From contig DAIOUZ010000005.1 of the NCBI GenBank assembly GCA_036759285.1, positions 1 to 33,331 of the forward strand: a DNA stretch of 33,331 nucleotides, written 5' to 3'. Positions 978-31,005 of the stretch are shown one piece after another (positions within the stretch are counted from its first letter, which is position 1; every line of letters starts with the position of its first letter). The position numbers and the translations under genes are program-made. The stretch is from Candidatus Limiplasma sp. GTDB taxonomy: Bacteria > Bacteroidota > Bacteroidia > Bacteroidales > F082. The notes beneath the pieces were generated by a model, which worked only from the letters and a program-made list of their open reading frames with translations, did not search any database and was not told the DNA's origin.

Positions 978-982
978 GTTTT

Positions 983-5976: not shown

Positions 5977-6009
5977 TTTGTTGAGATTTTTTGTTAATAA
6001 TTAGGTTAA

Positions 6010-6321
6010 TTATAGAGCCGCTTTGCGGTTCGTTCTCAGATTGTTGAGCCTGTGGCATATTGCCTCGGCTTCGCTTTCCGTCTCGTCGCGTGTCGGTACC
6101 CGAATGGCGAGAAGCCAATTCTCCAACTCCGACTTTCGGAAGCGCAAGAAGTTGCCCTGTTTGTAGTGCGGGATCTTCTTGCCGCTCGTCAGGCTGTGCA
6201 GGTAGTTCACCGAATAGCCAGTGAGAAGTGCCGCCTCGTTGATGTCAAGCACTTCCTTTGCGGAGAGTCGGGTCAAAGACTCAATGCGATCGAGTTGTTC
6301 TTTCAGTTCAGCGTCATTCAT
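6010..6321 (-). CDS. Excisionase-family / MerR-like HTH DNA-binding protein
   Basis: LDINEAALLTGYSVNYLHSLTSGKKIPHYKQGNFLRFRKSELENWL is a typical HTH_17 (Xis-like) pattern. Confidence 0.65.
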   Translation of the reverse strand: MNDAELKEQLDRIESLTRLSAKEVLDINEAALLTGYSVNYLHSLTSGKKIPHYKQGNFLRFRKSELENWLLAIRVPTRDETESEAEAICHRLNNLRTNRKAAL

Positions 6322-6484
6322 GGCTTGCCTCGCTTTCCGTGTTGCAGAATAGGACGATGGCCATCACTATTTCGATGATGAAGGTGCCGATGTGCCACCA
6401 TGCGCCTTTGGCCACAATGCCATAAAAGGTGACACCAGCCATGAAAGCAAGCACGCCTGCAATAATCCTTTCAATATGTTTCAT
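6314..6484 (-). CDS. Small membrane protein (56 aa, two hydrophobic helices)
   Basis: Hand translation gives MKHIERIIAGVLAFMAGVTFYGIVAKGAWWHIGTFIIEIVMAIVLFCNTESEASHE. The start is ATGA-coupled to the stop of 6481..6702 and the 3' end overlaps the next start. It is below the ORF-track cutoff. Confidence 0.45.
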   Translation of the reverse strand: MKHIERIIAGVLAFMAGVTFYGIVAKGAWWHIGTFIIEIVMAIVLFCNTESEASHE

Positions 6485-6702
6485 TGCAGGCCTCCTTTCT
6501 CGCCGTTCATTTGGCTTTCCACGCGCTTGCGGATGTTGTAGAGTGTGCTAACCGAGTAGATGCCGTATTTCTTCATGATGAAATCATTCACGGCAGTTGC
6601 TTGCGCCCCTGGTTCCTCCATCATTTTGTTGTACTCTTCATAGATGGCTTTCTCGCGGGCTTCCTTATCCTTTCGGAAAGGTGTTTGTAGTGTCTGTGTC
6701 AT
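6481..6702 (-). CDS. Small hypothetical protein, possible HTH regulator (73 aa)
   Basis: It sits in the operon and has no competing frame. The C-terminal segment FIMKKYGIYSVSTLYNIRKRV looks HTH-like. Confidence 0.5.
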   Translation of the reverse strand: MTQTLQTPFRKDKEAREKAIYEEYNKMMEEPGAQATAVNDFIMKKYGIYSVSTLYNIRKRVESQMNGEKGGLQ

Positions 6703-6729
6703 GTGATATTGAATTAACTATTTAGTTTA

Positions 6730-6984
6730 TTAGAACTTCTCCATCGTACCGACGATAGCGATGTGAATAGACATGTTAGTGTTGCCTTCCCATTCGAAGT
6801 CGTTCCGTTCCACATCGTCGGCCATGTGGTAGAATAGTTCCTCCATTTCAGGAGTGACGGGGAAAGCCACCTGTTTCTCGGAGTTGCCGCACTTGGCGGT
6901 GATGAGCATGCGGTTGAAGTTTTTGGTGTAGGGACGGTTCTCATACGAGCCGCCGCCATCTGTCGTGGTCTTTTTGTCTGTCAT
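6730..6984 (-). CDS. Hypothetical early protein (84 aa)
   Basis: This ORF is preferred over the overlapping frame 6714..6959, which is Pro/Ser/Thr/Trp-rich and looks non-coding. Confidence 0.5.
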   Translation of the reverse strand: MTDKKTTTDGGGSYENRPYTKNFNRMLITAKCGNSEKQVAFPVTPEMEELFYHMADDVERNDFEWEGNTNMSIHIAIVGTMEKF

Positions 6985-7002
6985 ACTGCTTTTGATTTTA
7001 AA

Positions 7003-7188
7003 TTAACTAATTCGTTTATTTTCTGTTTGAAATTTTCTTTCAGGCTTAATGGTAAACAACTTCTTTTGTTTCCTCAGCATCTTACCGATGCCGTCTGCCT
7101 CCATGAGGCTGAGGTCGTTGATGCGCGTGTTGTGTGATGTGTGGCAGTCGTTGAACACGGTCACTTGGTATTTTCTTCGTTCATCCAT
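7003..7188 (-). CDS. Hypothetical protein, first gene of the leftward early operon (61 aa)
   Basis: Called on position, immediately downstream of the switch region. No motif recognised. Confidence 0.4.
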   Translation of the reverse strand: MDERRKYQVTVFNDCHTSHNTRINDLSLMEADGIGKMLRKQKKLFTIKPERKFQTENKRIS

Positions 7189-7214
7189 TTTTTATTGATT
7201 TGTTTATTATTTTG

Positions 7215-7222
7215 TATTTTTG
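7215..7222 (+). promoter_or_regulatory. Candidate Bacteroidetes -7 box TATTTTTG (rightward, lysogeny operon)
   Basis: Exact match to the TAnnTTTG consensus, about 100 nt upstream of the repressor-like gene. Confidence 0.35.
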
Positions 7223-7248
7223 TCGCGTTATTTGTTTGTAACACGCTG

Positions 7249-7256
7249 CAAAAATA
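7249..7256 (-). promoter_or_regulatory. Candidate Bacteroidetes -7 box TATTTTTG (leftward, early operon)
   Basis: The plus strand reads caaaaata, so the minus strand reads TATTTTTG. It lies about 60 nt upstream of the ATG at 7188. A second candidate, TAAATTTG, is at 7304-7311 (minus). Confidence 0.35.
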
Positions 7257-7324
7257 AAGAACTTTATAATATGTTCAATGTTTTATATAAACTTTTTTAT
7301 AAACAAATTTATAAATAATTGAAA

Positions 7325-7732
7325 ATGACAAAGTTAGAAAGAATAAAAATCTTGATAAATATTCTGATTTTTAATGGCCATGCGGAAAGTCAGAAGGATT
7401 TTGGTATAAAAATGGGCTATGAAAACGAGTCTTATTTCAGCCAAATCATAAATGGAAAGGTAAATCTACCAAAGAACTTTATAGATAAACTAAAGTCCAT
7501 TGAGCCGAGAGTAAATGAAGAATGGATAGATGATGGGACAGGAGAAATGTTTATCGGCGATAATGCTGTCAACAGCAATTTCGCAAAAAACATCGGCGGT
7601 GACAACCAGCAGAACTCGGGCAAGGTGATAGAGGCTCTTGCCAACCAACTGACAGAAAAAGACCGTCAGATAGCCAAGAGCCAAGAGCAGATAGACAGAC
7701 TGCTTTCAATAATCGAAAAAATGAACTCATAA
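7325..7732 (+). CDS. XRE-type HTH protein with coiled-coil C-terminus (repressor candidate)
   Basis: SQKDFGIKMGYENESYFSQIINGK...EEWIDDGTGEMF is an HTH_3-like pattern. The ORF-track start at 7319 is TTG; the ATG at 7325 (MTKLER) is more likely. It is divergent from the early operon. Confidence 0.6.
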   Translation: MTKLERIKILINILIFNGHAESQKDFGIKMGYENESYFSQIINGKVNLPKNFIDKLKSIEPRVNEEWIDDGTGEMFIGDNAVNSNFAKNIGGDNQQNSGKVIEALANQLTEKDRQIAKSQEQIDRLLSIIEKMNS

Positions 7733-7743
7733 ATAATAACATC

Positions 7744-8823
7744 ATGGATTTCAAAGACCAATTCAAACAACTTGCTGAAAGGTTTTCAAAACTGAAAGAA
7801 CAGATTCAAACCGAAGAAGCCACAAAGAATGCTTTCATTATGCCATTTATCCAACTTTTGGGATATGATGTATTCAATCCATTGGAAGTTGTACCCGAAA
7901 TGGATTGTGACATATCCAAAAAGAAAGGAGAAAAAATTGACTATGCCATCATGAAAGATGGCGAACCCATTATGCTGTTTGAATGCAAGCATTGGAAGCA
8001 AGACCTCAATCTGCATGAAACACAACTTTCTCGTTACTTCGTATCGTCAAAAGCCCGCTTTGGTGTTCTCACGAATGGCCTAAAATATCGTTTTTATACG
8101 GATTTGGAAAAAGCCAACATCATGGATGCCCAGCCATTTCTTGAAGTGGATTTTGAAAAAGCAAAGGATGCCCAGATAGAAGAATTAAAGAAATTCCACA
8201 AATCCTATTTTGAAGTTGATAATATCCTCAGTTCGGCTTCAGAACTCAAGTATATGTCGGAACTCCGCAATGTTTTAAAAGAGGAGTTTCAAACACCATC
8301 TCCCGATTTTGTTAAACTTCTTGCCAAGAGGGTTTATCATGGTACCATGACTCAAAAAATGCTTGACCAATTCAACGACTTGGTAAAGCGTTCGGTTTCA
8401 TCATACATCAACGATGTTATTTCCGATAGATTGAATGTTGCCATACAATCAACTGAGAATAATGCATTGGCCAAAGAAACGCCAGATGAAAAGCAACTGG
8501 AAATTGTCGATGATGACAACGATAGTAAAATCGTCACGACAGAAGAAGAACTTGAAGGATTTTACATTGTTAAATCAATTCTTCGCCAATGTATTGAAGC
8601 GGATCGTATTGTTTACAGAGATGTTCAATCATATTTTGGTATCCTGATTGACGACAACAACAGAAAAGCCGTGTGTAGGCTTTACTTGAACACTCAGAAA
8701 AAATATATAGGTATTATAATGCCTGATAAAACTGAAAACAAACATCAAATCTCATCTATTGATGAAATTTACAATTATGAAGATGAACTGAAAAATGCTG
8801 TTTCAAAATTTGTGGAAAAATGA
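7744..8823 (+). CDS. Lone HsdR_N-type PD-(D/E)xK nuclease domain protein (no helicase or methylase partner in the window)
   Basis: KIDYAIMKDGEPIMLFECKHW (D...E-x-K) followed by QLSRYF...ARFGVLTNGLKYRFY matches the type I restriction enzyme R-subunit N-terminal nuclease domain. The C-terminal segment TTEEELEGFYIVKSIL...RIVYRDVQSYFGILIDDNNRKAVCRLYL is a domain that commonly accompanies it. Confidence 0.7.
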   Translation: MDFKDQFKQLAERFSKLKEQIQTEEATKNAFIMPFIQLLGYDVFNPLEVVPEMDCDISKKKGEKIDYAIMKDGEPIMLFECKHWKQDLNLHETQLSRYFVSSKARFGVLTNGLKYRFYTDLEKANIMDAQPFLEVDFEKAKDAQIEELKKFHKSYFEVDNILSSASELKYMSELRNVLKEEFQTPSPDFVKLLAKRVYHGTMTQKMLDQFNDLVKRSVSSYINDVISDRLNVAIQSTENNALAKETPDEKQLEIVDDDNDSKIVTTEEELEGFYIVKSILRQCIEADRIVYRDVQSYFGILIDDNNRKAVCRLYLNTQKKYIGIIMPDKTENKHQISSIDEIYNYEDELKNAVSKFVEK

Positions 8824-9050
8824 ATGAGCGACTAAAACACCTTATAGAATTGAAGACGAGCGGGAACCAGAAGGAATTCGCCGAATTGATGGGATGGTCG
8901 CCTCAATACATTACCAAATTGCTGAAAGGGGAGGGAGAATTCGGATTGAAACCCGTCTTGACCATTTTGTCTGCATTCCCTGAGATAGATGCCCGATGGC
9001 TGCTTTTTGGTCCTGGATCAACCGAAGCAAAAACTGATAAATCCGAATGA
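8820..9050 (+). CDS. XRE-type HTH protein (76 aa)
   Basis: GNQKEFAELMGWSPQYITKLLKGE...ARWLLFGPGS is the HTH pattern. The start is ATGA-coupled to the nuclease gene. Confidence 0.65.
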   Translation: MNERLKHLIELKTSGNQKEFAELMGWSPQYITKLLKGEGEFGLKPVLTILSAFPEIDARWLLFGPGSTEAKTDKSE

Positions 9051-9054
9051 CACT

Positions 9055-9312
9055 ATGCAGACAGAAGAGAGCCAAAAGATAGTGCTTCGGTTTTTCGAGG
9101 CCTTGAACATCTTGAAGGAAAACAAGCGGATTAGGGGAAAGAAGACCTTCACCGACCGTTACGGCATCAACCGCTGGAACCTGAACACGCTCGAGAAGGA
9201 GCCAGAACGCGACATCTTTCAGGTGGCCTGGCTCAATTATCTTGTAAGAGATTACGGCGTGTCGGCTGAATGGCTCCTGACCGGCAGAGGAAAGCCGTTG
9301 GTGAAAGGGTAG
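9055..9312 (+). CDS. HTH-like DNA-binding protein (85 aa from ATG 9055)
   Basis: The ORF-track start at 8989 overlaps the previous gene. The internal ATG at 9055 (MQTEESQK) follows its stop. The C-terminus YGVSAEWLLTGRGKP carries the XRE-type end motif. Confidence 0.55.
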   Translation: MQTEESQKIVLRFFEALNILKENKRIRGKKTFTDRYGINRWNLNTLEKEPERDIFQVAWLNYLVRDYGVSAEWLLTGRGKPLVKG

Positions 9313-9414
9313 GGGCTTATTTTTCCGAAATACGCCGTCTCCCGCGTTTTCAAAATCATTACGATAAAGTATAAGGAAGACGAATAAAAACGCCGTAGAA
9401 GCCGCGAAATCGCG

Positions 9415-15634: not shown

Positions 15635-16972
15635 CTATGGTTCAATATACTCCATCTGGTTTGTTGAGCCTTTGAAGATGTAGCCACATTGGTTCTCAAT
15701 CTCCATTTCCTCCAAGGGCAGCATGTTTTGTTTGCCGAAAGTTCGTTCAGCTATTGTGATGAACTCCACAATATACATGTAGCTGCCATGAAACTCGTAG
15801 GCTTTCATTCTGCCTGTCTGGTTGCCTTCTTCGTCCATTTCGGGAATACCAATCAAGCACTTAATCCAATTGTTATTGCCCTTTGCATCGGATTTCATGT
15901 CATAGTCGAAGATTGTAAACATTTTGCCTTCAAGTTCTTTTGGAGCAATATTCGGAGCATCCAATTTGCGGTTAATTTTGATTTTTTCGGTAAGTTGTCT
16001 CAGTTTCATTTTCTGTTCTATTTTTAGCATTAGATTGTATGCGTCTGCATGTCTCATCAGGCCGTAGTAACTCGCCCATGATTTGTCGTTTCTGCATTTA
16101 GATGCACGGGTACGAATGTTATGCCGAATGGTGGTGTAGCCTTTGTTATGGTCTGTAACGCCACGATCAGGGTTTCTGTGGACGATGTAGCCGCAAAACG
16201 ACACTTCCTTTGTCAGTGGCTGTAACCTGATGGCCGAGGCTTTGGCTCTAATCTGCAACTTATACCACCAAAAGTTCTGTACACGCCATTTCAGTTGGTT
16301 GGCATCCTCTTTGGTATAGGTAGCAAAGAGGCAGTCGTCAGCGTAGCGCATTGCAAATGGAGCCACTTGCTTGCTCCATAAATCAAACCCCAGCATGACA
16401 ATATGGTGGATGAGGGGTGAGGTCGGAGTGCCGATAGGCAAGTGCCCGTCAACAAAACTGACAGCAATACCGAACTCTATCAGTTCACGGTCGCCAGTCA
16501 ACCCCCGCATCGCCTTGCGAAATATCTTTGGGGTGATATGCTCATAGCATTTCCTCTGATCGATGATTAGGCCATAGGTCAAATCGCGTCTGTCATACAT
16601 CAGATGCTTCAGCCGATGGATGACAGAGTTAGCCCGTTCTGATGATGTGATTCCACAACCAGGCTTGCAGTTGATGCCGTTTTTGTTGTCGTGCCAGTCA
16701 TAATAAGGCTTGGCCAACAATATGAAAAGGTGCTGCAAAACAAACGGGAAAAGAAAAGGCGATTTTATATGCCGAGTTTTTCCGTTCGGGTTCTGCTTAG
16801 TGAGTGTTCTATACTTGAGTTGTTTGCGGTACCAGCCATTGGTTATAGATGCCATGACGGACTCGGCATAGGCTTCCGCGTTGGCCATCATGCGCTCCAC
16901 CTCCTTTTTGTTGGAGTGGCCTTTGGCCGCATTGGTCATCGCGGCAAGCACTATGTCCTTCGTCACTCTCAT
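15635..16972 (-). CDS. DGR reverse transcriptase (445 aa)
   Basis: RT motifs present are NPNGKTRHIKSP, IIDQRKCYEHI, LPIGTPTSPLIHHIVM and MRYADDCLF (YADD). It lies 150 nt downstream of the TR on the same strand. Confidence 0.9.
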   Translation of the reverse strand: MRVTKDIVLAAMTNAAKGHSNKKEVERMMANAEAYAESVMASITNGWYRKQLKYRTLTKQNPNGKTRHIKSPFLFPFVLQHLFILLAKPYYDWHDNKNGINCKPGCGITSSERANSVIHRLKHLMYDRRDLTYGLIIDQRKCYEHITPKIFRKAMRGLTGDRELIEFGIAVSFVDGHLPIGTPTSPLIHHIVMLGFDLWSKQVAPFAMRYADDCLFATYTKEDANQLKWRVQNFWWYKLQIRAKASAIRLQPLTKEVSFCGYIVHRNPDRGVTDHNKGYTTIRHNIRTRASKCRNDKSWASYYGLMRHADAYNLMLKIEQKMKLRQLTEKIKINRKLDAPNIAPKELEGKMFTIFDYDMKSDAKGNNNWIKCLIGIPEMDEEGNQTGRMKAYEFHGSYMYIVEFITIAERTFGKQNMLPLEEMEIENQCGYIFKGSTNQMEYIEP

Positions 16973-17122
16973 GGCTCAATGTCAAGTTTGAGCAGTCGGC
17001 AAGAATCAGGCATTTCAACCAAATCTTGCCACTGGCCTCAGCCTTTCGGCTCGCCAGCTTGTCTATGTATGTCTGCCGCTTCTGGGCACGGGTGACAGGC
17101 AATCTTTATTCCATTGCTCATA

Positions 17123-17232
17123 CTTTAGCAGAAGCGCAATAGTACGCATTCGTGTTGGCTACCGTGTTGTTCGCATTGAGATAACGCGCTGACAAATTGC
17201 TGTTGTTAGCGTTGTTGCCACAGCGGACACCT
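17123..17232 (-). repeat. DGR template repeat (TR), 110 bp
   Basis: 101/110 identical to 17421-17530 at a constant offset of 298. All 9 differences are at coding-strand adenines of this copy. In frame it reads ...GNNANNSNLSARYLNANNTVANTNAYYCASAK (AAC/AAT-rich). Confidence 0.9.
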
Positions 17233-17306
17233 GCCTGTCGCCCTTTGTTTGTCCTCACGCCTTCGGAGGTGCGGTCACTATGCCGCACTCGTGCGCTACG
17301 ACGCGG

Positions 17307-17314
17307 CAAAAATA
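17307..17314 (-). promoter_or_regulatory. Candidate -7 box TATTTTTG upstream of TR (promoter for the TR-RT transcript)
   Basis: The plus strand reads caaaaata. It sits between the target-gene terminator and the TR. Confidence 0.35.
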
Positions 17315-17324
17315 GGAAAATTTC

Positions 17325-17349
17325 AAAAAAAAACCGCCCTTTGGGGCGG
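17325..17349 (-). terminator. Rho-independent terminator of the DGR target gene
   Basis: The minus strand reads CCGCCC-CAAA-GGGCGG followed by T9 (17325-17333). Confidence 0.7.
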
Positions 17350-17357
17350 TAAGGGTC

Positions 17358-17374
17358 GGGCGATTGCATCGCCC
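17358..17374. other. GC hairpin GGGCGA-TTGCA-TCGCCC just downstream of the VR/target stop
   Basis: 6-bp perfect stem with a 5-nt loop. It is part of a run of phased TTGCA motifs. Confidence 0.5.
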
Positions 17375-17400
17375 TTGCAGCCGTTGCACGGCGTTGCACG

Positions 17401-20400
17401 CTATTGCACATCCAACAAAACTTGAGCAGAAGCGCAATAGTACGCAGACGTGTTGGCTACCGTGCTGTACGCATTGAGATAACGCGCTGACAAATAGCTG
17501 TTGCTAGCGTTGAAGCCACAGCGGACACCTACACGGGTTTTCTTTCCCGCGCTACCCCAGTAGTTGGCCATGTAGCCGTAGCCGCACTCGCCTTTGCCGA
17601 AGGTTGCACCTTGCGTGACTGGCAACGGCGTGTTTGGCAAGCGACGGCGAATGTAACCATTGGCACGGGTGACAATGCTTCCTGCGTAACGGTATTTGTC
17701 CTCAAAGCCTGACGGAAATTTTTCTCCAATGTTGACGCTGGTGTTGCCTTCGTTGACCCACTTTTCTTGGTCAGGTTCAATGTAGGCTTTCAGCGTATAG
17801 CCGTAACTGCCACTGGAAGGTGCAGTCTTACACTCGCCCAAAACTTCAATTCCACCTCCCCAATATGGACCGATATCACCTGACATGTCGCATCCAAGCA
17901 TCAATCCAGTACGCAGGCAGCATTCTACCGTGAAGGTTTCAGGGGTGCCGTTCGCGTCACTATAGGCGGCAAATTCACCCGTCACAATTTTGTACACCCT
18001 TGCGTTCATGTAGCCATCGGCCACGGTGGGAGGCGTGAAAGTGGATGTGGTCGGGTCGACATACCACCACACGCAACCGTTGAACTCAAACTTTTCGCCT
18101 GCGGCAATGCCGAACTCGACGGCAAACGACACGGCAATCTGAGCCTCCAAAGTCTTAGCGTGAGGACCATAGGAGGTCAACATGGCGGCCATGTCGGTAG
18201 TTTTGTATGTGCTGCCGTCTTTGTAATAGATTTTGCCGCTTCCTCCCCAATTCTTGTATGTCCATTCGCTGTCACCTGAGGCTTTAATGCGTACACCGCC
18301 TCTTGCAAGCCATTGGCTTTCTTCGCCACATGCGTCAACGGCGGTGATGCCGCTGCTGAAACGAGCATACGAGCAAAGATATTTCGTCCCCAAGGCTGTC
18401 TCGATGCAACGCAAGAATGTGTTGCGGGCGTGCCATCCACCTTCGGACACAGGGAATGGAGCCGTAGTGTCGTGGTTGTTTCTTCGTGCCGTGGTCTTGG
18501 CATCAATCTGGCTGTATCCCGAAGTCGGATAGTGGCCATTGTCGTAAAACATGGCACAGTTCGAGGCATAGCCTTTTCTTCCTCTAACACCTGTCAAACT
18601 CGACGGATAATTGTAGAAGAAACTGCGGAGCTTATTTACGGAGTTCTCACTGATGGCCGTGGCGGGTGACGGGCAGATACCCGTAGGTTTCAAAGCAAAG
18701 GTCTTCACGTCAACACCGTCCCACACATTCGCGTTAGCACCAAGAATACCGTTCCACTCCTTGCCCGATGATCCAACCACATTGTCGAGAAGAAATACTT
18801 CATCTTTACGGCCAACGAAAATAGAGTATTTCGTTTCGACAGTTTCCCATGGCATGAGATAGTGAGAGACTTCCACATAGGTGGTTTCCTCGTTTTCGGT
18901 CACGGCCTTATAGAGAGTGGGGTGAGTGAGTTTCTTCACGCCATCCACGATTGCGATACTGCAAAGCGCAAGGAAAGTCTCAGGGTCGAAAGAGCCTGCT
19001 GCGCAATATTGGTTCTGCCCCTCGTTGTCGGTGTAAAGTGCGTTGGCCATGCATTCGTCGCGCATTGCTGTGGTAATGCCCACAACGGGTGCCCAATTGC
19101 CGTAAATATCACGTAACCAGTTGTTTTTACGTAACTCCATCACTGGGCGCTTCTTCGTCTCGCCTTCCACGGCTGTCATGTCAACGATGAAAGGTCGCCA
19201 ATCCAATGCCCATTCCTTATTTCCGAACACTGCCAAGGCTTCTGGGTTGTCCTGGTCTGTCGGACTGGCCGTGTTTGCGTTTTCAAGCCAAGCACCGACA
19301 CAATAGAGCGGTTTGGTATATGATTGCTCATCCAATTCAGCCATGACCAACTTGAATTCCTTCATCATGGTTCTAACGCTGTCTTTGAAGCCAATCATAT
19401 AACTGATAACAATCGTCCCGGTGGATGACTCGCCACCAACCACTTCTTCGGTCCCCATGTCGTTAGGCATTTTTCCTGTCGGGTTAATCGAGTGTGTTCC
19501 CGTGACGGGAGTTGCGATTTGGTAATCTACATATAAACCAGCGAATGCAGTTGCAGGGTCAATCTGTTCCTCACTGTCGAAAACGAGTTTGTAGCCGTCA
19601 AGTGTAACGCCCTCAATGTCGCTTCGGATGAGACCGTCACGCATGGCCGCGTATGTTCCTGATGTCGGCAAGCTCGCCGTGTATCGATAACCGCTCGTTG
19701 CCTGTCCTTCGCCCTCAATGACTTCGCCCTCAATCTCGGTTTCAGTCCATGTGAGGCTTGTCAGAAGTTGTGCAGCTATATTTCTCTCATAAGTTCCGCC
19801 GCCTTCAGGATAGATGATAATGCTGTCGAAGATACCGCTATTACCTTGTTCGATGCCCCTAAGGATAAGGCAGGTCTTCCCGTTGATTGTAGTGGTTTGA
19901 AATTTGCTCGTAAGGGCTGAAACGGCCACGACAAGTTCCACAGGAGTGGTGTACTCAGTAAATATATCATAATCCTTGCTCCATGCCAGATGCGCAGAAA
20001 TGTCAGCCAGCACAGCGGAATTGGTCAATTCTATGACCAAATATCCCTCATCAGGAAGGTAGAATGTGTGCGGGTGTCCTGTTGCCACATGGCTTTCAAC
20101 GGCATTGACTTCGGAACCGTCAGATGGGAGCGTGGTCGAATGCCAAACTCCGACAACAACTCCGTCACCGACTTTCAGATTGTTTCCGTTTCTATCGGTA
20201 ATCAGATAACCGTTGTTTTTCTCTGCCGTACCCCATTCTCCGAACTCGCATTTCGGACAGCGGATGATGCATAATTTATTGTTGCCTGATCCGATAGTGC
20301 CTCCGCTTACCTCGCCAAGGAAATAACCGTTTGTTTTACCTGAAGACCATGCTGCTGGATTCAGTTGGTTGCTTCCGTTCCATCTCATGGCGTTGATTTT

Positions 20401-20874
20401 GAAAGCCTCGCTTTCGGCACCGCCGCAACCTCCAATGAGTTGTAATAGTAGGGCTTCTTTGCTACTATCGATGCTCTCGTTGCCCGCTGTGGTCCTTATG
20501 ACGAATTTGTCTTTTACCGTAACGCGGTCGTTGAGAGAAACGAGGTCGCCAGCGATAAGGTTTGGATAGGTTCCATTAGCTGTGACAAGATTAGGGAACG
20601 TGCCGTTGGCAATGGCATCAAGCAGGTTTGTTTCATGCCAATGGTTCTCATTCCAATCTTCATGAGGGCTGATTGCCACGATACACTCATAGAGTTTTCC
20701 ATCCCTCGTGCAATGGTCTCCGACAGCGTAAGGGGCATTCGGATCATAAGCAGGAGAAATGGCCTCCATGTTTGCTCTCAGATGAGGATAAATCCCTTCA
20801 TCATCAAAAAAGGTTGGGTGTCCCCAGTGATTTCGGTGGCCACCCCATTGATTTCTTGTGCTGTTGTCTGACAT
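17401..20874 (-). CDS. DGR target: 1157-aa tail fiber/receptor-binding-like protein with C-terminal variable region
   Basis: A large ORF in the tail module. The last ~40 codons (...VGVRCGFNASNSYLSARYLNAYSTVANTSAYYCASAQV) are the VR. A C-type-lectin-like fold is an inference only. Confidence 0.85.
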   Translation of the reverse strand: MSDNSTRNQWGGHRNHWGHPTFFDDEGIYPHLRANMEAISPAYDPNAPYAVGDHCTRDGKLYECIVAISPHEDWNENHWHETNLLDAIANGTFPNLVTANGTYPNLIAGDLVSLNDRVTVKDKFVIRTTAGNESIDSSKEALLLQLIGGCGGAESEAFKINAMRWNGSNQLNPAAWSSGKTNGYFLGEVSGGTIGSGNNKLCIIRCPKCEFGEWGTAEKNNGYLITDRNGNNLKVGDGVVVGVWHSTTLPSDGSEVNAVESHVATGHPHTFYLPDEGYLVIELTNSAVLADISAHLAWSKDYDIFTEYTTPVELVVAVSALTSKFQTTTINGKTCLILRGIEQGNSGIFDSIIIYPEGGGTYERNIAAQLLTSLTWTETEIEGEVIEGEGQATSGYRYTASLPTSGTYAAMRDGLIRSDIEGVTLDGYKLVFDSEEQIDPATAFAGLYVDYQIATPVTGTHSINPTGKMPNDMGTEEVVGGESSTGTIVISYMIGFKDSVRTMMKEFKLVMAELDEQSYTKPLYCVGAWLENANTASPTDQDNPEALAVFGNKEWALDWRPFIVDMTAVEGETKKRPVMELRKNNWLRDIYGNWAPVVGITTAMRDECMANALYTDNEGQNQYCAAGSFDPETFLALCSIAIVDGVKKLTHPTLYKAVTENEETTYVEVSHYLMPWETVETKYSIFVGRKDEVFLLDNVVGSSGKEWNGILGANANVWDGVDVKTFALKPTGICPSPATAISENSVNKLRSFFYNYPSSLTGVRGRKGYASNCAMFYDNGHYPTSGYSQIDAKTTARRNNHDTTAPFPVSEGGWHARNTFLRCIETALGTKYLCSYARFSSGITAVDACGEESQWLARGGVRIKASGDSEWTYKNWGGSGKIYYKDGSTYKTTDMAAMLTSYGPHAKTLEAQIAVSFAVEFGIAAGEKFEFNGCVWWYVDPTTSTFTPPTVADGYMNARVYKIVTGEFAAYSDANGTPETFTVECCLRTGLMLGCDMSGDIGPYWGGGIEVLGECKTAPSSGSYGYTLKAYIEPDQEKWVNEGNTSVNIGEKFPSGFEDKYRYAGSIVTRANGYIRRRLPNTPLPVTQGATFGKGECGYGYMANYWGSAGKKTRVGVRCGFNASNSYLSARYLNAYSTVANTSAYYCASAQVLLDVQ
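17421..17530 (-). repeat. DGR variable repeat (VR), 110 bp
   Basis: Cognate of the TR. Substitutions give N->F,S,Y,Y,S,S and K->Q relative to the TR reading frame. Confidence 0.9.
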
Positions 20875-20877: not shown

Positions 20878-21150
20878 TTATTCGTATTTTATGTAGGCTC
20901 CCGTGAGGCTGCCTGTGGTTGTGATTTTGTAATATGAATACCTACTCAGATCGGCTTCAATGTTGATGGAACCGATTGGAGGAATGGTGAACTGCTTCAA
21001 CTCCTCGTCATAATGGCTGTCATCGGCTGAATAATGCAGCGTCAACGTACCTGAACCAAAAAACAGGAAGTGTGCAAAGTTGGCTTTCGCTTGAAACGGC
21101 TTCACATTGCCGTTTTCCAATTCGAGTTTAATCAGTTTTGATGTGTCCAT
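20878..21150 (-). CDS. Hypothetical small tail-module protein (90 aa)
   Basis: It tightly packs between the Dit-like gene and the DGR target. It is acidic and beta-rich and does not resemble Avd. Confidence 0.55.
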   Translation of the reverse strand: MDTSKLIKLELENGNVKPFQAKANFAHFLFFGSGTLTLHYSADDSHYDEELKQFTIPPIGSINIEADLSRYSYYKITTTGSLTGAYIKYE

Positions 21151-26873: not shown

Positions 26874-27092
26874 TTACTTCATTTCAGAAATCAGTGCCAT
26901 GAGTCTTTCGTTGTTCCTCGGGTCATCGGCGCTTATGGTTTCTTCGCCGTTGCCTTTGTCACCTTTGCCTTTGCCGTCTTTCTTCTTGTGGTAAGAGGGC
27001 AATGTGGCACCGTACATGATGAGATTGGCATACGACATCTCATATAACACATACTCTATCGACAACCCGAAAGCCTTGGCCGTTCCCGACAC
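26874..27092 (-). CDS. Distal part of the tail assembly chaperone -1 frame (T portion of G/GT)
   Basis: The ORF-track start is GTG, overlapping the G stop. This frame stays open upstream as far as the slippery site at 27173-27179. Confidence 0.55.
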   Translation of the reverse strand: MSGTAKAFGLSIEYVLYEMSYANLIMYGATLPSYHKKKDGKGKGDKGNGEETISADDPRNNERLMALISEMK

Positions 27093-27637
27093 TACTGCCC
27101 AGATGCTATCGCTTCGGTCCCCACTTTCGTCGGCTGGATCATGTTTATCCCTGCGAGGAAAGTGGTAAGCGCGAAAAAATCCGACACCTGCATCTTGCGG
27201 AGCAACAATGCAACAAGAGTATGCAACTCTTTCGGCGAAATGTCCATGAGAAGTTTTTCGACAAGTTCGGCCTTACGGTCAATCACCTTTTCAACCTCAA
27301 CTTCCTCATAGGTCTTGTAAAGGCCGAAGAAACGCTGTTTCTCGCGCTTCTCAACCGTTTTCACCGTTTCTTTGAGGTGACGTGCGCCCAGGATGAGGAT
27401 GGCCGCTATTTCGCCGTCAAGCGGTCCGAAATCCTTGGCGTAATGTAGCGTCTCCTCGACAATCCTTGAATCATCCATTGTCACTTTCGGAAACCGTGAC
27501 ACTGCCTCAGATGCCAATATCATCGTCGCCGTGCTGGGTGGTGCTATCGGGTAAGTTTGTCCACCAACATTCACCTCGTCAAGTTGTTGGAGAATGGTTT
27601 CTGCCACTTTCTTTTCTGTTGTCTTCTTTTTTTCCAT
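27092..27637 (-). CDS. Tail assembly chaperone (gpG-like)
   Basis: Called on position between the tail tube gene and the tape measure, and on the slippery heptamer near its 3' end. Confidence 0.6.
   Translation of the reverse strand: MEKKKTTEKKVAETILQQLDEVNVGGQTYPIAPPSTATMILASEAVSRFPKVTMDDSRIVEETLHYAKDFGPLDGEIAAILILGARHLKETVKTVEKREKQRFFGLYKTYEEVEVEKVIDRKAELVEKLLMDISPKELHTLVALLLRKMQVSDFFALTTFLAGINMIQPTKVGTEAIASGQ
27173..27179 (-). promoter_or_regulatory. -1 programmed frameshift slippery heptamer T_TTT_TTC
   Basis: In the G frame the codons are GAT TTT TTC (SDFFA). The -1 frame has no stop from here to 26874. Confidence 0.55.
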
Positions 27638-27671
27638 TGTCGGTGTTGTTTTAGGGAAGTCCCGTTGTTTG

Positions 27672-27776
27672 TGTCAGAAGGCGGACTCGAACCGCCGACT
27701 CTCGTACTGACTTTTATGGTGCGCTATTGCCAGTAATCCATTACGCACCACGCTCTACCAACTGAGCTACACTGAC
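27672..27776 (-). tRNA. tRNA-like gene (105 nt) with canonical acceptor, D-arm and T-arm but a grossly expanded anticodon/variable region
   Basis: The minus strand reads GTCAGTG-TA-GCTC-AGTTGGTA-GAGC-G-[54 nt]-GGCGG-TTCGAGT-CCGCC-TTCTGAC-A. The 54-nt middle forms a 7-bp stem TGGTGCG/CGCACCA with a 20-nt loop plus a 20-nt tail. No 5-bp/7-nt anticodon arm exists at any position. Confidence 0.45.
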
Positions 27777-27823
27777 AACCATCTAATTAAATACAAACAG
27801 TTTATTTTGGTCACTGACCAGTG

Positions 27824-28291
27824 TTAGCCTTGACCAAGTTGACCACCGCCACTAATCACCTGATACTTCACGGTGTTGCCTCTTGCAGGCTTCAGGCAAT
27901 CGACAACAACATGGATGAGGATGCCGTCCTCGGTGTTGTACTTGTCTTCGATGCTCACAATGGAGTTGTCGATTTGGATGCCGATGCAAGTCGGGTCCTC
28001 GGGAGTGACACGGAAGGCATGATTTCCAGCAACAATACCGTCGTCATGTTCGAAATGAGGAGTTGTGTTCTTCTTGTAGAACAAATCGAACTCCAGCGTA
28101 TAGGTGTTCTTCGCCTTACGGCGGTCAACCACGCCTCCGCCTTCTTCTTTTGCTTCCTTTTTCTCACCTGCATTGGTGGTCAATTGCGTGGAGTTTTCCT
28201 TCGGCGTTTCAAGTGCTTTCCAGTTTTCTCCAGGAGCACCGTTGGTTGATGGCACGGTTTCAATAGTGCATTTTCCCCAAGAAATATTCAT
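27824..28291 (-). CDS. Major tail tube protein candidate (155 aa)
   Basis: Called by synteny: it follows the terminator-like protein and precedes the chaperones and tape measure. Confidence 0.5.
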   Translation of the reverse strand: MNISWGKCTIETVPSTNGAPGENWKALETPKENSTQLTTNAGEKKEAKEEGGGVVDRRKAKNTYTLEFDLFYKKNTTPHFEHDDGIVAGNHAFRVTPEDPTCIGIQIDNSIVSIEDKYNTEDGILIHVVVDCLKPARGNTVKYQVISGGGQLGQG

Positions 28292-28345
28292 AACGATTGA
28301 TTTTAAGTGTTATACGATTTGTTTGTAAAATGAATAGGTTGTGTC

Positions 28346-28756
28346 TCAACTACCGAAATACTTGTAATACAGCATAGCAACGATGAAGTGCTGTTCGATG
28401 TCGGGTGCTTCCTCCGTCGAGACAGTGGCCTGCAGCCTGAACTTATAGCACGAGCCATTTGTGTTGAGGCTCTCGGCGAAGTCGGTCATGGCGCGTTCTA
28501 TCTCTTCGCACCTTCTGCCGTCCTCGACCATAACGCCATTGAACTCAAAATCGGGAACATAGGCGTGTATGGTAACCACTCCCTCCTCAATCTGGTTCGG
28601 GAAACCAGTCGTGAGCATCACCACTATGTCCTCCTTGCGGCTGTCGCGAGGACGGTAGCCCTTGCGATACACATCACCGTTCACAGTATGGGCAATGGAG
28701 TGGGCTTTAACCATTTTCATAATGTCGCCTACTATTTCCTTTTCTGTCTTTGCCAT
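28346..28756 (-). CDS. Tail terminator / neck protein candidate (136 aa)
   Basis: Called by synteny only. Confidence 0.4.
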   Translation of the reverse strand: MAKTEKEIVGDIMKMVKAHSIAHTVNGDVYRKGYRPRDSRKEDIVVMLTTGFPNQIEEGVVTIHAYVPDFEFNGVMVEDGRRCEEIERAMTDFAESLNTNGSCYKFRLQATVSTEEAPDIEQHFIVAMLYYKYFGS

Positions 28757-28757
28757 G

Positions 28758-29255
28758 CTAATTTACTTTCAATTTCAGTTTGTTGATTAGATTTTTCACG
28801 GCTGAATCACCGTATAAAGTCGCACTGTCAATGACATCATAACCCAATTTCTTCACATACTTGGCATAGTCCATTCCTGCTACAAACACAAGCACGATGC
28901 CGCTCCCATCGAAAATACTGACAGACACTTCTTTGGCGAATTTGATCCCCTCGTTGTGGCCTTCCTCTCCGTCTTTGACAACCTCAAAATCCGAATTCTT
29001 GACCAATTTGCCGTCAACGGACACGGCATATCCCATGCTGCTGCGCAGGTTTCCAGTCTGGTCCTTGAAAGTGCCAGCCTTGTTGGTATCTCGTGCAATA
29101 TTCAGCATTTCCTCACCGATGATGAGGAACTCTCGGATGATGGCCTTGTCGATTTGACGGATTCTCTTTTCGAGATAGGCGTCAACCTGTGCCTGCGGTG
29201 TCTTCTGATAGATAGGCATCTTCGTGAATCTTATACGGTTATTCTTGTCTGACAC
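28758..29255 (-). CDS. HK97 gp10-like tail completion protein
   Basis: FKDQTGNLRSSMGY resembles the gp10-family TGxLRxS motif. Position in the neck module supports the call. Confidence 0.5.
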   Translation of the reverse strand: MSDKNNRIRFTKMPIYQKTPQAQVDAYLEKRIRQIDKAIIREFLIIGEEMLNIARDTNKAGTFKDQTGNLRSSMGYAVSVDGKLVKNSDFEVVKDGEEGHNEGIKFAKEVSVSIFDGSGIVLVFVAGMDYAKYVKKLGYDVIDSATLYGDSAVKNLINKLKLKVN

Positions 29256-29548
29256 ACAGCTTGCAACGGTTCAGACGATATGATTTGGAACTCACCAACC
29301 TCATGGCCATCGCCATCCTTCAGGCGTATACGCTCGGAAGTGACGGATTGCAACTCTATCAGGATGATGTATGCCCTCAACGTTGCATGTTCGCCGTTCA
29401 CTCGGCCTTGCGCATTGTACCTGTCGGGATAGTATTGGCAAGGAATCGGGTCGCCCCATCTTCTTACAGGAGCGACGGGATAGCCGTTCTCGTCCAAACC
29501 GCCACCCGCCGTTTCCTGCAATTCTATCGTCCCGTTTTCGATGATCAT
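29231..29548 (-). CDS. Head closure / head-tail adaptor candidate (105 aa)
   Basis: Called by synteny and size. Confidence 0.4.
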   Translation of the reverse strand: MIIENGTIELQETAGGGLDENGYPVAPVRRWGDPIPCQYYPDRYNAQGRVNGEHATLRAYIILIELQSVTSERIRLKDGDGHEVGEFQIISSEPLQAVCQTRITV

Positions 29549-29877
29549 AGCCTTGACCCTTTATATCCATAGGCTGGTTTCAACACTTTCATTTCCTCTT
29601 CTTCGTACATATCGTAGATGGCATTCGCCCGCTGCCGAAACAGAAGGCGCTGCTGGTCGGTGAAAGAGTAGTTTTGGCCGCCCTGAGACACATTGGGAGC
29701 AAGCGACAGCCACATAAGGAGGTCTGCCTTGGCAAGCATGTAGTTCGTGCTTTTGAGGCTATCCTGAGTGACAGTCGAATTCAGCGTAAGATTGCGCTTT
29801 ACCGAAATCTCCTCGATGGTCTTTTGCGGGATAGGGTAGGAACTGATGCTTTTCAATGATTCAAGTACCGTTGCCAT
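29545..29877 (-). CDS. Head-tail connector (gp6-like) candidate (110 aa)
   Basis: Called by synteny, immediately after the major capsid gene. It has a 4-nt overlap with the next gene. Confidence 0.4.
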   Translation of the reverse strand: MATVLESLKSISSYPIPQKTIEEISVKRNLTLNSTVTQDSLKSTNYMLAKADLLMWLSLAPNVSQGGQNYSFTDQQRLLFRQRANAIYDMYEEEEMKVLKPAYGYKGSRL

Positions 29878-29897
29878 GATTCTGCCGTTTTAGAGGA

Positions 29898-30992
29898 TTA
29901 CGACCAGGCGTTGCCGTCGGTCTTCACATAGACATTGCGATATGCAGTGTCGAAAACAGGAACAGCGTCAGCCTCGCCGATAGTCACCTCGCTCTTAGGT
30001 TCAATCGTACCATACTTCTTAACGACAGTGTGGGCACGCTCGACACGGATGATGGAGTCGTTGTTTTCGGCAAGGATGTCGTACTGGGTCGAGCCGAGAA
30101 TGGCTGTCTCCGAGAGGATCATGCGGTCATCAGCAAACGGGTTGCCGCTGGTCTGGCTGCCGTCCGTGAACTCGCGGGTGATGTTTTGGTCAATCACGAT
30201 GAGTTGGAGGCCGTTCAGCCAAGCCTGCTTGGCAAGCATGGTGTTCACCTGATTGAGGTCAGGTGTCTCGGCCATGCCCACGGCGTTCTGCATGTAGGAG
30301 GCGCACTTCTTGATAATCTGCTCGGACGAGCAAATTTTGTAGAAGGTGTTCAGGTTGACGAAGCCCCATTTCGGGTTCATGCCATCGCCCTTGGCAGTCT
30401 TGATGATGCTGGCAAGATCGCCGATGATATCGGCACTGTTGGCAGCTCCCCAGTTGGTGCCAGTATGCTTCTTCTGCACTTCCTCGTTGACCTGATAATC
30501 AAGGTCGAACTCGTTGGCGAAGGTGGCATTGTTCGTTGTCGTGAACGAAAGTTTTCCAGCATTGGAGGCCAAAGCCCAGGCAATGTACTCCAACTCGGAT
30601 TGCACGCCGATGAAACAGAAGTCCACATCATCGCCCCAGAAGCGCACTAATTGGGCTGCGTCACTGTCCTGAGCCATAGCCAATGCGGTCTGATAGTCCT
30701 TGATTTCGGAACGCTTCATGTCGCGGCTGATGCTGATGAACGGGATGTCACCACGTGCCGATTCGAAGATGGGGCGCTTCTTCCTGATGATCGTACCGTT
30801 GTCGGTGTGGATGTCAGCGGCGACGTGCATTTTCTGCAGTTGGTTCGTGAGGGTCTTCCATTCGAAACCAGTCTTTCTCACGACTGGGAAGTGCCTTCCA
30901 AAGAGGAAGGGGGTCACGTCCACCGAATTCACGCGGGCTTGCACCATTTGTGCGTCAAGCCCTTGGATAAGAGTGTTTACTACTGTAGCCAT
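29898..30992 (-). CDS. Major capsid protein (364 aa, lambda gpE-like / HK97 fold)
   Basis: Called on size, on position after the scaffold and decoration genes, and on an N-terminal region reminiscent of the capsid protein E family. Confidence 0.7.
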   Translation of the reverse strand: MATVVNTLIQGLDAQMVQARVNSVDVTPFLFGRHFPVVRKTGFEWKTLTNQLQKMHVAADIHTDNGTIIRKKRPIFESARGDIPFISISRDMKRSEIKDYQTALAMAQDSDAAQLVRFWGDDVDFCFIGVQSELEYIAWALASNAGKLSFTTTNNATFANEFDLDYQVNEEVQKKHTGTNWGAANSADIIGDLASIIKTAKGDGMNPKWGFVNLNTFYKICSSEQIIKKCASYMQNAVGMAETPDLNQVNTMLAKQAWLNGLQLIVIDQNITREFTDGSQTSGNPFADDRMILSETAILGSTQYDILAENNDSIIRVERAHTVVKKYGTIEPKSEVTIGEADAVPVFDTAYRNVYVKTDGNAWS

Positions 30993-31005
30993 TGTTAGTC
31001 AGTTT

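Follow-up and report, generated by a model that had tools for sequence, protein, structure and literature searches.

In the prototype diversity-generating retroelement (DGR), that of phage BPP-1, the components are arranged as mtd-avd-TR-brt, where TR is the template repeat and brt encodes the reverse transcriptase (RT). Phage DGRs usually have a GC-rich hairpin or cruciform with a 7-10 bp stem and a GRNA tetraloop after the variable repeat (VR) only, and the hairpins downstream of VR are required for efficient homing in BPP-1 (PMC3240598). A duplex named the cPRT Stop, with a mean length of 13 bp, has been seen in 207 DGRs (bioRxiv 10.1101/2023.10.23.563531). The avd gene occurs in 74% of DGRs, there is an avd-free 'Lineage 3', and about 20% of DGR RTs have a post-thumb extension of up to ~150 aa, the function of which is unknown (Wu et al. 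2018, NAR 46:11, PMC5758913). A non-canonical lineage, which has the RT motif IGxxxSP and lacks Avd, was first described in phage crAssE-Sib (Epsilonunovirus, GenBank OR575929; Babkin et al. 2024, Viruses 16:513, PMC11054128). It was observed that the crAssE-Sib DGR was missed by myDGR (PMC11054128).

Here we analysed a stretch of 33,331 nucleotides (contig DAIOUZ010000005.1, hereafter the window). The window very probably carries a functional DGR with a target-TR-RT (Avd-less) architecture in a temperate siphovirus-like phage of gut Bacteroidales, and we put the probability of this reading at about 93%. The DGR is a further member of the lineage known from crAssE-Sib and not a new kind of system. 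Its RT is 50% identical to that of crAssE-Sib over 445 aa (98% of the query), including the C-terminal domain. Both elements have the IGxxxSP motif, lack Avd and follow the order target(VR)-TR-RT. Both also have a homologous target C-terminal region of ~390 aa, GCA-triloop hairpins after VR (five in crAssE-Sib) and a TR-enclosing helix at the same place, although the helix, leader and spacer sequences of the two are unrelated. The carriers are different; crAssE-Sib is a 151-kb crAss-like phage with a target of 685 aa, whereas the window phage has an integrase and a tape measure protein and its target is 1157 aa long. In addition to these two genes, the window encodes a holin, an endolysin and a replication module of the kind usual in temperate siphoviruses, and its gene content is not that of an Epsilon crAss-like phage. 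A megablast search with the locus gave no match among 50,697 phage records, and the closest relatives of the element are in MAGs of Bacteroidales from roe deer, goat and horse, not from human gut.

The window DGR also shares several features with BPP-1. These are the adenine-specific transfer from TR to VR in the C-terminus of a tail protein, an RT core that superposes on bRT (8ub7_A), pairing of the stretch upstream of TR with the spacer, after which come a stem-loop and adenosines, in a manner that resembles the cPRT Stop, and inverted repeats, here in a variant form, after VR but not after TR. Unlike BPP-1, the window lacks Avd, has IGxxxSP instead of IGxxxSQ, has an extra RT C-terminal domain of ~110 aa, uses a dedicated non-coding leader in place of the avd 3' end, and has IMH and IMH* that differ at a single fixed position. 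The window fits the descriptions in Wu et al. 2018 of DGRs that lack avd, of an avd-free lineage and of an RT extension, and it compares there with the Avd-less DGRs of architecture A (TR-RT core). However, the GxxxSP lineage was probably absent from the sample of that survey, because it depends, like myDGR, on the SQ signature (PMC11054128). Likewise, myDGR would probably miss the window DGR.

Table 1. Features of the DGR locus, in window coordinates, listed from the target gene to the RT along the coding strand.
Feature	Position	Strand	Remarks
Target gene, 1157 aa, tail-module protein with VR at C-terminus	17401..20874	-	ORF list
Variable repeat (VR)	17420..17530	-	111 nt; repeat search, re-alignment, degenerate pattern search
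Diversified VR core	17438..17514	-	Holds all adenine-substitution sites differing from TR, in the window or in L003
IMH-like 3' end of VR, TTGCGCTTCTGCTCAAGT	17420..17437	-	13-nt adenine-free stretch and fixed C at 17424
Array of three GCA-triloop hairpins	17358..17401	-	Begins at last base of target stop codon
Hairpin GCGT-GCA-ACGC	17391-17401	-	First of array
Hairpin GCCGT-GCA-ACGGC	17380-17392	-	Second of array
Hairpin GGGCGAT-GCA-ATCGCCC	17358-17374	-	Third of array
Intrinsic terminator of target gene	17323..17350	-	7-bp GC-rich stem, CAAA loop, then T9 run
TATTTTTG, match to -7 promoter box TAnnTTTG	17307..17314	-	Putative promoter of TR-RT transcript
5' leader of putative DGR RNA, nested hairpins	17244..17306	-	Conserved; alignment columns 1-58 nearly invariant; helices 1-3
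5' strand of TR-enclosing long-range helix, GGGCGACAGGCA	17232..17243	-	Helix 4
Template repeat (TR)	17122..17232	-	111 nt, 32 adenines, 10 AAY codons; identical in contig L003
IMH*-like 3' end of TR, TTGCGCTTCTGCTAAAGT	17122..17139	-	Sole difference from VR copy: fixed A at 17126
TR-RT spacer, non-coding RNA	16973..17121	-	Highly conserved; 149 nt
3' strand of TR-enclosing helix, TGCCTGTCACCC	17090..17101	-	Analogue of cPRT Stop duplex
Stem-loop UGCC-C[AGAA]G-C-GGCA (17074-17088), then A-rich single strand	17060..17088	-	Invariant (helix 5)
Two spacer hairpins, 17031-17058 and 16998-17030	16998..17058	-	Compensatory changes in both (helices 6, 7)
Reverse transcriptase, 445 aa	15635..16972	-	Pfam RVT_1, phrog_1423; IGTPTSP 16415-16435, YADD 16334-16345
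RT C-terminal extension (aa 331-445)	15638..15982	-	Flexible linker, then conserved alpha/beta domain ~aa 340-427

A first-pass annotation, made from the sequence by eye, described TR and VR as 110-bp repeats without indels at an offset of 298. Re-alignment at this offset extended the pair to 111 positions without gaps and returned the same nine mismatches (TR 17126, 17149, 17150, 17167, 17171, 17198, 17206, 17215 and 17216). All nine are T on the plus strand of TR, that is, A on the coding (minus) strand, and no other position differs. With 32 adenines on the coding strand of TR, the probability that all nine mismatches hit an adenine by chance is C(32,9)/C(111,9) = 5.6e-6. The same pair was recovered independently by a repeat search of the window, and a degenerate pattern made of the non-adenine positions matched two sites in the window (TR and VR) against 0 expected. 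VR is in frame and forms the C-terminus of the 1157-aa ORF, as had been annotated, and the translations quoted there were reproduced. Codon positions 1 or 2 hold 28 of the 32 adenines in TR.

The codon changes had all been read as the typical design of a DGR, which holds for eight of the nine mismatches. The exception is the 3'-most one, at 17126/17424 (AAA to CAA, K to Q). Because TR has GCTAAAGT and VR has GCTCAAGT at this site in most related loci, the VR base is C in nearly all of them, and the tail ...SAQVLL of the target protein is conserved, the comparison of loci marks the K to Q change as a fixed TR/VR boundary difference and not as diversification. Therefore, eight mismatches are due to diversification and one is fixed. 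An adenine-free stretch of 13 nt followed by C in VR and by A in TR, which would distinguish a putative IMH from IMH*, recurs in most related loci, and the equivalent of 17420-17437 is annotated as IMH in the crAssE-Sib record.

The target gene is located downstream of the tape measure gene, between the gene for a tail protein (phrog_6305) and that for a 990-aa tail protein. Its last 398 aa, VR included, align along their full length with the crAssE-Sib RBP (35% identity, E 4e-74). DGRs typically display VR on a C-type lectin or Ig-like fold. For the window target, a C-type lectin fold is a candidate with indirect support from this homology, as the published model of that RBP resembles TaqVP 5VF4 (PMC11054128). 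An AF2 model of the last 398 aa of the window target had a pLDDT of 48 (27-sequence alignment, low confidence); a Foldseek search of the PDB with this model returned noise only, and a profile search of PDB sequences with the C-terminal region of the target gave no credible match, so that none of these analyses confirmed a C-type lectin fold. It had been proposed that the diversified region is a phage receptor-binding surface. The position in the tail module and the homology to the proposed RBP of crAssE-Sib support this proposal. VR recoding presumably serves to follow variable host surface receptors.

Alternatively, the element may be a DGR whose diversified protein is not a host RBP but a tail-associated adhesin that binds something else, for example glycans of mucus or surfaces other than the host's, and tropism switching would then not be the selected function. 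We regard this as unlikely. The target has an extra N-terminal region of ~500 aa with a weak, sub-cut-off CBM_5_12-like match, the 990-aa tail protein after RT, which has a weak Prophage_tail match, could be the primary RBP, and some phage DGRs have targets for which binding to non-host ligands has been proposed (tentaclins, PMC10743442). However, the target gene comes directly after the tape measure and distal-tail genes, its product is homologous to a proposed RBP, and the target is an RBP in BPP-1, the one well-studied phage DGR.

Between VR and TR, several elements are arranged in a conserved order (Table 1). In the 2470 nt that follow the VRs of 19 loci we found 50 GCA-triloop hairpins, compared with 8 in 199,203 nt elsewhere, which is an enrichment of ~500-fold. 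Their stems vary from locus to locus. Inverted repeats are present after VR and absent after TR, and in the lineage of the window they form tandem arrays of 2-5 hairpins, with stems of 4-7 bp and GCA triloops, whereas BPP-1 has a single 8-bp hairpin with a GAAA (GRNA) tetraloop. The position of the intrinsic terminator is conserved in 14 close relatives; no evident terminator was found at this place in crAssE-Sib. Behind the terminator lies a match to TAnnTTTG, which is said to be the Bacteroidetes -7 promoter box consensus of Bayley et al. 2000. The box is located 69-100 nt upstream of TR in 15 close loci and 152 nt upstream in crAssE-Sib, and in 14 of the 16 loci examined no second such box lies between VR and TR. 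A sigma-70 promoter scan, the model of which is not applicable to Bacteroidetes, showed no enrichment.

The leader and spacer on the two sides of TR are conserved about as strongly as coding sequence. In these regions, 12 pairs had changes on both sides, compared with 5.1 +/- 1.6 in shuffled alignments (0/500) and 0-4 in slid controls. The TR-enclosing helix 4 (12 bp) had compensatory changes at six of seven scored pairs. Helix 5 never varies, so covariation is uninformative on it. We also used a swap control for the TR-enclosing helix, in which cognate strands paired at 11.4/12 positions and non-cognate strands at 10.1/12. This control is only weakly discriminating because G-U pairs are tolerated, and the column-wise covariation count is better evidence for the helix. 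RNAduplex energies compared with those of shuffled spacers were uninformative. Pairing of the TR 3' end (GCTTCTG) with the spacer (CAGAAGC) was considered as a primer-template duplex and was dropped, as the variants do not covary across loci. The TR-enclosing helix followed by the stem-loop and the A-rich strand has a cPRT Stop-like order, which suggests that reverse transcription of TR is primed in cis.

The elements follow the order VR - hairpins - terminator - promoter box - leader - TR - spacer - RT in 19 TR/VR pairs, namely that of the window and the 18 that could be read at other loci, on viral contigs, in MAGs of Bacteroidales, in crAssE-Sib and in other runs. Across the 19 pairs, mismatches affect 202 of 491 TR adenines versus 9 of 1405 other bases. 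Two close target homologues, P0121 and P0122, differ mainly within VR. Furthermore, metagenome contig L003, from a different sequencing run, encodes an RT that is 100% identical to that of the window (445/445 aa), with flanks that are ~99% identical and a TR identical at 111 of 111 positions. The VR of L003 has 20 mismatches to its own TR, 20/20 of which are on TR adenines. It differs from the VR of the window at 16 of 111 positions, all of which are TR adenines, and both sets of differences are confined to codon positions 1 or 2. Because L003 shares RT and TR with the window yet differs in VR solely at TR adenines, the comparison of the two contigs indicates that the element has been recently active and that the VR of the window member has recently turned over. 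Both the interpretation as a DGR and the expectation that VR variability is tied to TR adenines, as put forward in the first-pass annotation, are borne out by L003 (16/16 VR differences), and the former also by the 18 other loci.

The exact element was found solely in Logan assemblies, in four sequencing runs. Three of those contigs end right at TR and therefore contain no VR, and one independent VR variant was recovered, which makes two alleles including that of the window. The degenerate non-adenine pattern of the exact element had 0 matches in JGI metagenome contigs and 0 in IMG/VR. Could the cassette be a fossil that once diversified VR and is now inactive, the VR differences between contigs being old and inherited? 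Only two VR alleles are known, no Avd is encoded, and in related crAss-like phages it is common for cassettes to be incomplete or decayed (PMC11054128). Nevertheless, an RT and a TR that are identical beside a VR changed at 16 positions fit recent turnover better than old divergence. In addition, every part of the cassette, from the RT ORF and the adenines of TR to the leader, the spacer helices and the hairpins, is intact and conserved. We therefore consider an inactive cassette very improbable.

The RT, which had been annotated by its YADD motif downstream of TR on the same strand, is confirmed there; its ORF starts 149 nt downstream of TR, is intact and is strongly conserved over its full length. 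The AF2 model has a confident RT fold (pLDDT 86.5) and matches the whole bRT (8ub7_A) with a TM of 0.78, normalised by bRT length, in Foldseek. In a sequence-profile comparison, the RT matched bRT (E 1.4e-8) no better than group II intron RTs (E 1.3e-9). Its motif is IGTPTSP and not the canonical [I/V/L]GxxxSQ, and the 38 family members end it in P or S and never in Q, while Ile is kept. GxxxSQ is a usual and not a necessary feature of DGR RTs, because crAssE-Sib is a published case of the same exception and the Q187P form of bRT is still capable of adenine mutagenesis (PMC7826257). That the locus is not a DGR at all, being an ordinary duplication or gene-conversion tract next to an RT from a group II intron, retron or defence system, is effectively refuted: the SP ending is typical of group II and retroviral RTs, the best PDB sequence match is a group II intron RT, and GenBank labels the crAssE-Sib homologue 'retron-type', but the mismatches are adenine-specific in 19 TR/VR pairs, the gap-free alignment excludes an alignment artefact as the source of the adenine bias, the VR-TR-RT order and spacing are conserved, no Rfam group II intron or other RNA family was found in the region, the Ile of IG is kept as in DGR RTs whereas group II RTs have QG, and the NCBIfam bit scores are 5-25x below their cut-offs (retron 37/235, group II 34/300, Drt2 16/390).

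Besides Avd, the proteins HRDC, MSL and CH1 count as DGR accessory proteins. Neither Avd nor another known accessory gene was found among 70 ORFs of at least 85 aa or among three large tail-module ORFs that were scanned separately. The 70 ORFs gave no match to PF05635, which we take to be the Avd-type Pfam family, and the cassette leaves no space for a further gene. Thus, when the locus was called a complete DGR, this was correct in that TR, VR and RT are present, and it needs qualifying in that Avd and a canonical GxxxSQ are not. The C-terminal alpha/beta domain of ~110 aa is found in this RT lineage only, and it had no match in Pfam (E up to 10) or NCBIfam. It is tempting, if rather doubtful, to regard the lineage as a mechanistically distinct, Avd-independent DGR subtype in which this domain replaces Avd by bracing the template-primer duplex and binding RNA, and/or recognises the GCA-triloop hairpin array that marks VR. 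If this is true, one protein and its RNA would be enough for targeted adenine mutagenesis.

Taking the locus as a functional DGR, we propose the following mechanism. Transcription of the target gene would stop at the intrinsic terminator, and the TAnnTTTG promoter just behind it would give rise to an RNA that comprises the leader, TR, the 149-nt spacer and the RT mRNA. The 12-bp helix between the TR 5' flank and the spacer, followed by the stem-loop and adenosines, may fold this RNA like the cPRT Stop of Bordetella phage. The RT with IGxxxSP and YADD would then carry out reverse transcription of TR, probably primed in cis, with random incorporation opposite adenines. The cDNA would replace VR, guided by adenine-free homology arms at both ends of the repeats, and the GCA-triloop hairpin array, which is present after VR and not TR, probably marks the recipient. 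As a result, 10 AAY codons and six other adenine-containing codons in the last ~35 residues could be recoded, which would allow ~10^15 protein variants.

This work places the lineage also in siphovirus-like temperate phages, and in prophages, of Bacteroidales from the guts of herbivores. The GxxxSP lineage is probably under-counted in DGR surveys because GxxxSQ is what standard DGR finders look for. Its conserved RNA elements, together with the hairpin array, offer handles on cDNA priming and target finding in an Avd-less DGR, and a single-protein DGR would be attractive for engineered targeted mutagenesis. DGRs on tail proteins of Bacteroidales phages are common.

The window carries a genuine diversity-generating retroelement (DGR) that is complete enough and has been active recently. 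Re-alignment of the template repeat (TR) and the variable repeat (VR) revealed an ungapped 111-nt match (17122-17232 versus 17420-17530), the two copies lying 298 nt apart throughout, in agreement with the gap-free repeats at this offset claimed in the first-pass annotation. The nine mismatch coordinates that it listed were also reproduced. At all nine, TR carries a plus-strand T, corresponding to A in the coding (minus-strand) sequence, and neither indels nor non-adenine mismatches were present. Adenines make up 32 of the 111 TR bases, and the probability that nine of nine mismatches fall on them is 5.6e-6. The pattern of non-adenine positions occurs twice in the 33-kb window, at TR and VR, where none is expected; therefore, there is a single template and a single target. 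VR lies in frame at the C-terminal end of the 1157-aa target ORF (17401-20874, minus strand). Codon positions 1 or 2 hold 28 of the 32 TR adenines. According to the codon table, about 2e15 protein variants would be possible, with 15 amino acids open to each of ten AAY codons and 4 to each of six further codons that contain adenine. The repeat ends are adenine-free over 15 nt (5') and 13 nt (3'), so that perfect homology arms are kept whatever the cDNA carries.

The 3'-most mismatch (17126 versus 17424; AAA to CAA, K to Q) is found again in most related loci, in which the boundary sequence is GCTAAAGT in TR and GCTCAAGT in VR, and the end of the target protein, ...SAQVLL, is conserved. Judging from these sequences, the mismatch is a fixed donor/recipient difference at the 3' boundary, like that between IMH and IMH*, the 3'-end elements of VR and TR, and not a product of mutagenesis. 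Thus, the earlier reading of the affected codons as DGR diversification holds for the others but not for this one. A 97-aa ORF (17118-17411, minus strand) reads through TR with the translation ...RCGNNANNSNLSARYLNANNTVANTNAYYCASAKV, and in some relatives gene callers fuse the reverse transcriptase (RT) in frame with TR or with a C-terminus resembling that of the target (P0064 and P0116; 546-aa and 732-aa 'RTs'). This ORF and these fusions are probably annotation artefacts of a protein-derived TR, not real genes.

Features of the DGR region (positions in the window)
Feature	Position	Strand	Remarks
RT	15635-16972	-	445-aa ORF, start 149 nt downstream of TR; RVT_1, IGTPTSP, YADD
Invariant stem-loop	17074-17088	-	directly after TR-enclosing helix, followed by A-rich strand
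TR-enclosing helix	17232-17243 (GGGCGACAGGCA) + spacer 17090-17101 (TGCCTGTCACCC)	-	most informative helix; 5' strand is the 12 nt immediately before TR
TAnnTTTG box	17307-17314	-	candidate promoter
Intrinsic terminator	17323-17350	-	
GCA-triloop hairpins (three)	17391-17401, 17380-17392, 17358-17374	-	first begins on final base of target stop codon
Diversified core of VR	17438-17514		

The exact RT protein is also on record from four other sequencing runs, on one contig each. Three of these contigs (L002, L004, L005) break off 19-123 nt upstream of RT, which is the edge of TR, because the repeat disrupts assembly. The fourth, the independent metagenome contig L003, extends as far as the target gene and has an identical RT, an identical TR (111/111 positions) and ~99% identical flanks. 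The L003 VR shows 20 differences from TR and 16 from the window VR, all of them at TR adenines in codon positions 1 or 2. VR variability tied to TR adenines, as had been proposed, was thus seen between contigs (16/16 sites). When TR stays constant and VR is rewritten between genomes that are otherwise nearly identical, this is the population signature of mutagenic retrohoming; the comparison argues for recent activity of the window DGR. Several database 'target proteins' (P0123, P0127, P0128) leave VR and continue in the sequence downstream of TR (...CASAKVEQRNNAPVS...). Because the repeat fragments assemblies or renders them chimeric, VR alleles are hidden from contig-level searches.

RT homologues in the protein collection numbered 409, nearly all of ~445 aa. 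We retrieved 18 loci; they came from viral contigs of IMG/VR and from Bacteroidales or Bacteroidia MAGs (roe deer, goat, horse and other sources). All loci with sufficient upstream sequence have a 111-118-nt TR/VR pair in the same layout: VR, 180-260 nt, TR, 140-180 nt, RT. Counting the fetched loci with a readable pair, the window, L003 and the crAss-like phage crAssE-Sib gave 19 distinct pairs, in which 202/491 TR adenines (41%) were mismatched versus 9/1405 other bases (0.6%). crAssE-Sib (OR575929) is the only annotated relative, and its record marks VR, IMH, TR and IMH*. Its RT is 50% identical to that of the window over the full length, and its receptor-binding protein matches the last 398 aa of the window target over its whole length, VR included (35% identity, E 4e-74). 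According to its authors, the crAssE-Sib RT has GxxxSP in place of the GxxxSQ of 'all known' DGRs and hence is missed by myDGR (PMC11054128); the window RT has the same SP type of motif.

The YADD RT was found at the spacing claimed for it, about 150 nt downstream of TR. In 38 aligned family members, the residue after IGxPxS is P or S and in no case Q, and the Ile of the IG motif is retained. In bRT, the RT of the Bordetella phage BPP-1 DGR, this Ile promotes adenine misincorporation, and bRT Q187P retains adenine mutagenesis (PMC7826257), so that an SP motif is compatible with function. One RT subgroup (P0070, P0075, P0078, P0082, P0084, P0086, P0088) has IGxPxSS instead of IGxPxSP in the family alignment A1 (column of window P186), which indicates that the last residue of this 'signature' motif is free to vary within the RT lineage. 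In the AF2 model, which is confident (pLDDT 86.5), residues 1-330 form fingers, palm and thumb and superpose on the entire 328-aa bRT in the structure of the DGR ribonucleoprotein (8ub7_A; E 2e-12; TM 0.78, normalised to bRT length); superposition on group II intron RTs is about as good. By sequence profile, too, bRT and group II RTs score about the same, and the window RT stays far below the cut-offs of the models for the retron, group II and Drt2 families. A disordered linker (331-338) leads to a compact alpha/beta domain (~340-427), which is among the best-conserved RT parts in the family alignment and has no match in Pfam or NCBIfam. A search of 1.84 billion representative proteins found only 80 clusters with this domain, almost always at the C-terminus of ~445-aa RTs or as shorter 40-260 aa matches, possible gene fragments; a few long proteins match solely over a short repeated stretch. 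The window encodes no Avd-type protein, the usual DGR accessory protein. Avd-less DGRs were already recorded, as were DGR RTs with function-unassigned C-terminal extensions (PMC5758913). Hence, 'complete' in the first-pass annotation needs qualification with respect to Avd and to SP in place of SQ.

Two to five GCA-triloop hairpins lie within 130 nt after VR in 19/19 loci, with 50 in 2470 nt after VR versus 8 in 199,203 nt of other sequence; in the 19 loci, GCA is the sole triloop or tetraloop with such an enrichment. The loop is constant and the stems vary between loci (GGGCGAT/ATCGCCC versus GGGCCAT/ATGGCCC; also GCCGT, GGGGC, GTTGC). The GRNA-tetraloop hairpin of BPP-1, which is required for efficient homing, shows the same pattern of varying stem and constant loop (PMC3240598). 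By this analogy, the array may be the lineage's counterpart of the BPP-1 target-recognition hairpin. The crAssE-Sib paper makes no mention of it (PMC11054128).

In the 15 close loci a TAnnTTTG box precedes TR by 69-100 nt, and in crAssE-Sib the distance is 152 nt; 14 of 16 loci examined have no second box between VR and TR. The box matches the Bacteroidetes -7 promoter consensus. In six related loci (L008, L010, L014, L016, L022, L023) the terminator T-run ends in TTTG ~21-22 nt upstream of the box, and there the terminator tail may double as a -33 element of the TR-RT promoter; this spacing is just 9 nt in the window. The ~60-nt leader is near-invariant across 15 loci, and the 149-nt spacer consists of invariant blocks and covarying helices. 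In the 15-locus leader/spacer alignment (A5), 12 base pairs in the helices outside TR changed on both sides, versus 5.1 +/- 1.6 in shuffles (0/500 reach 12) and 0-4 in slid controls. Compensatory changes were seen in 6 of 7 scored pairs of the TR-enclosing helix, and the equivalent place in crAssE-Sib is occupied by a 16-bp helix whose sequence is unrelated. The arrangement in the window, with helix, stem-loop and A-rich strand, matches the cPRT Stop of Bordetella phage DGR RNA, a duplex of upstream-of-TR and spacer sequence followed by a stem-loop and adenosines. From this match, we infer that cDNA synthesis in the window DGR would be cis-primed. One candidate primer-template pairing was dropped as it showed no covariation. 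Rfam has no family in the TR/VR/RT region. A conserved hairpin, GCTCAA...TTGAGC (16974-16993, minus strand), ends two bases short of the RT start codon; it could block the translation start region, a hint that folding of the DGR RNA and translation of the RT may be coupled.

The window DGR belongs to a lineage described in 2024, which has three known departures from the textbook DGR: SP for SQ, no Avd and an extended RT. The novelty is modest, and no new point changes the kind of system. What is new is the presence of the lineage in temperate siphovirus-like phages of herbivore-gut Bacteroidales, direct evidence of VR turnover between samples, the GCA-triloop array, the conserved (candidate) promoter, leader and cPRT-Stop-like RNA architecture, and a C-terminal RT domain private to the lineage.

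In essence, the window holds the genome of a temperate phage, or what looks like most of it. The minus-strand order is replication module, integrase, lysis genes, 990-aa tail protein, RT, TR, target, small ORF, tail protein, tape measure and head genes, which places the DGR cassette within the tail module. No close relative was found among 50,697 phage records. The rest of the window (1-9400 and 27000-33331) is phage as well and encodes a DnaC-like loader, an O-like or DnaD-like replication initiator, a Sak4-like annealing protein, an endonuclease (phrog_4225), HSDR_N- and OmpA-domain proteins and a major head protein. Directly upstream of the target, with a 3-nt gap, is a 90-aa ORF (20878-21150, minus strand) with no match in Pfam, PHROG or NCBIfam; at its distance from TR-RT, it is no obvious candidate for an accessory gene. 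ARAGORN called no tRNA in the window, and an Rfam tRNA match (27672-27776, minus strand; 40.8 bits, 105 nt, full model 1-71) lies between the tape measure and head-tail genes. A tRNA interrupted by an insertion or intron is one possible explanation, a tRNA-like element another.
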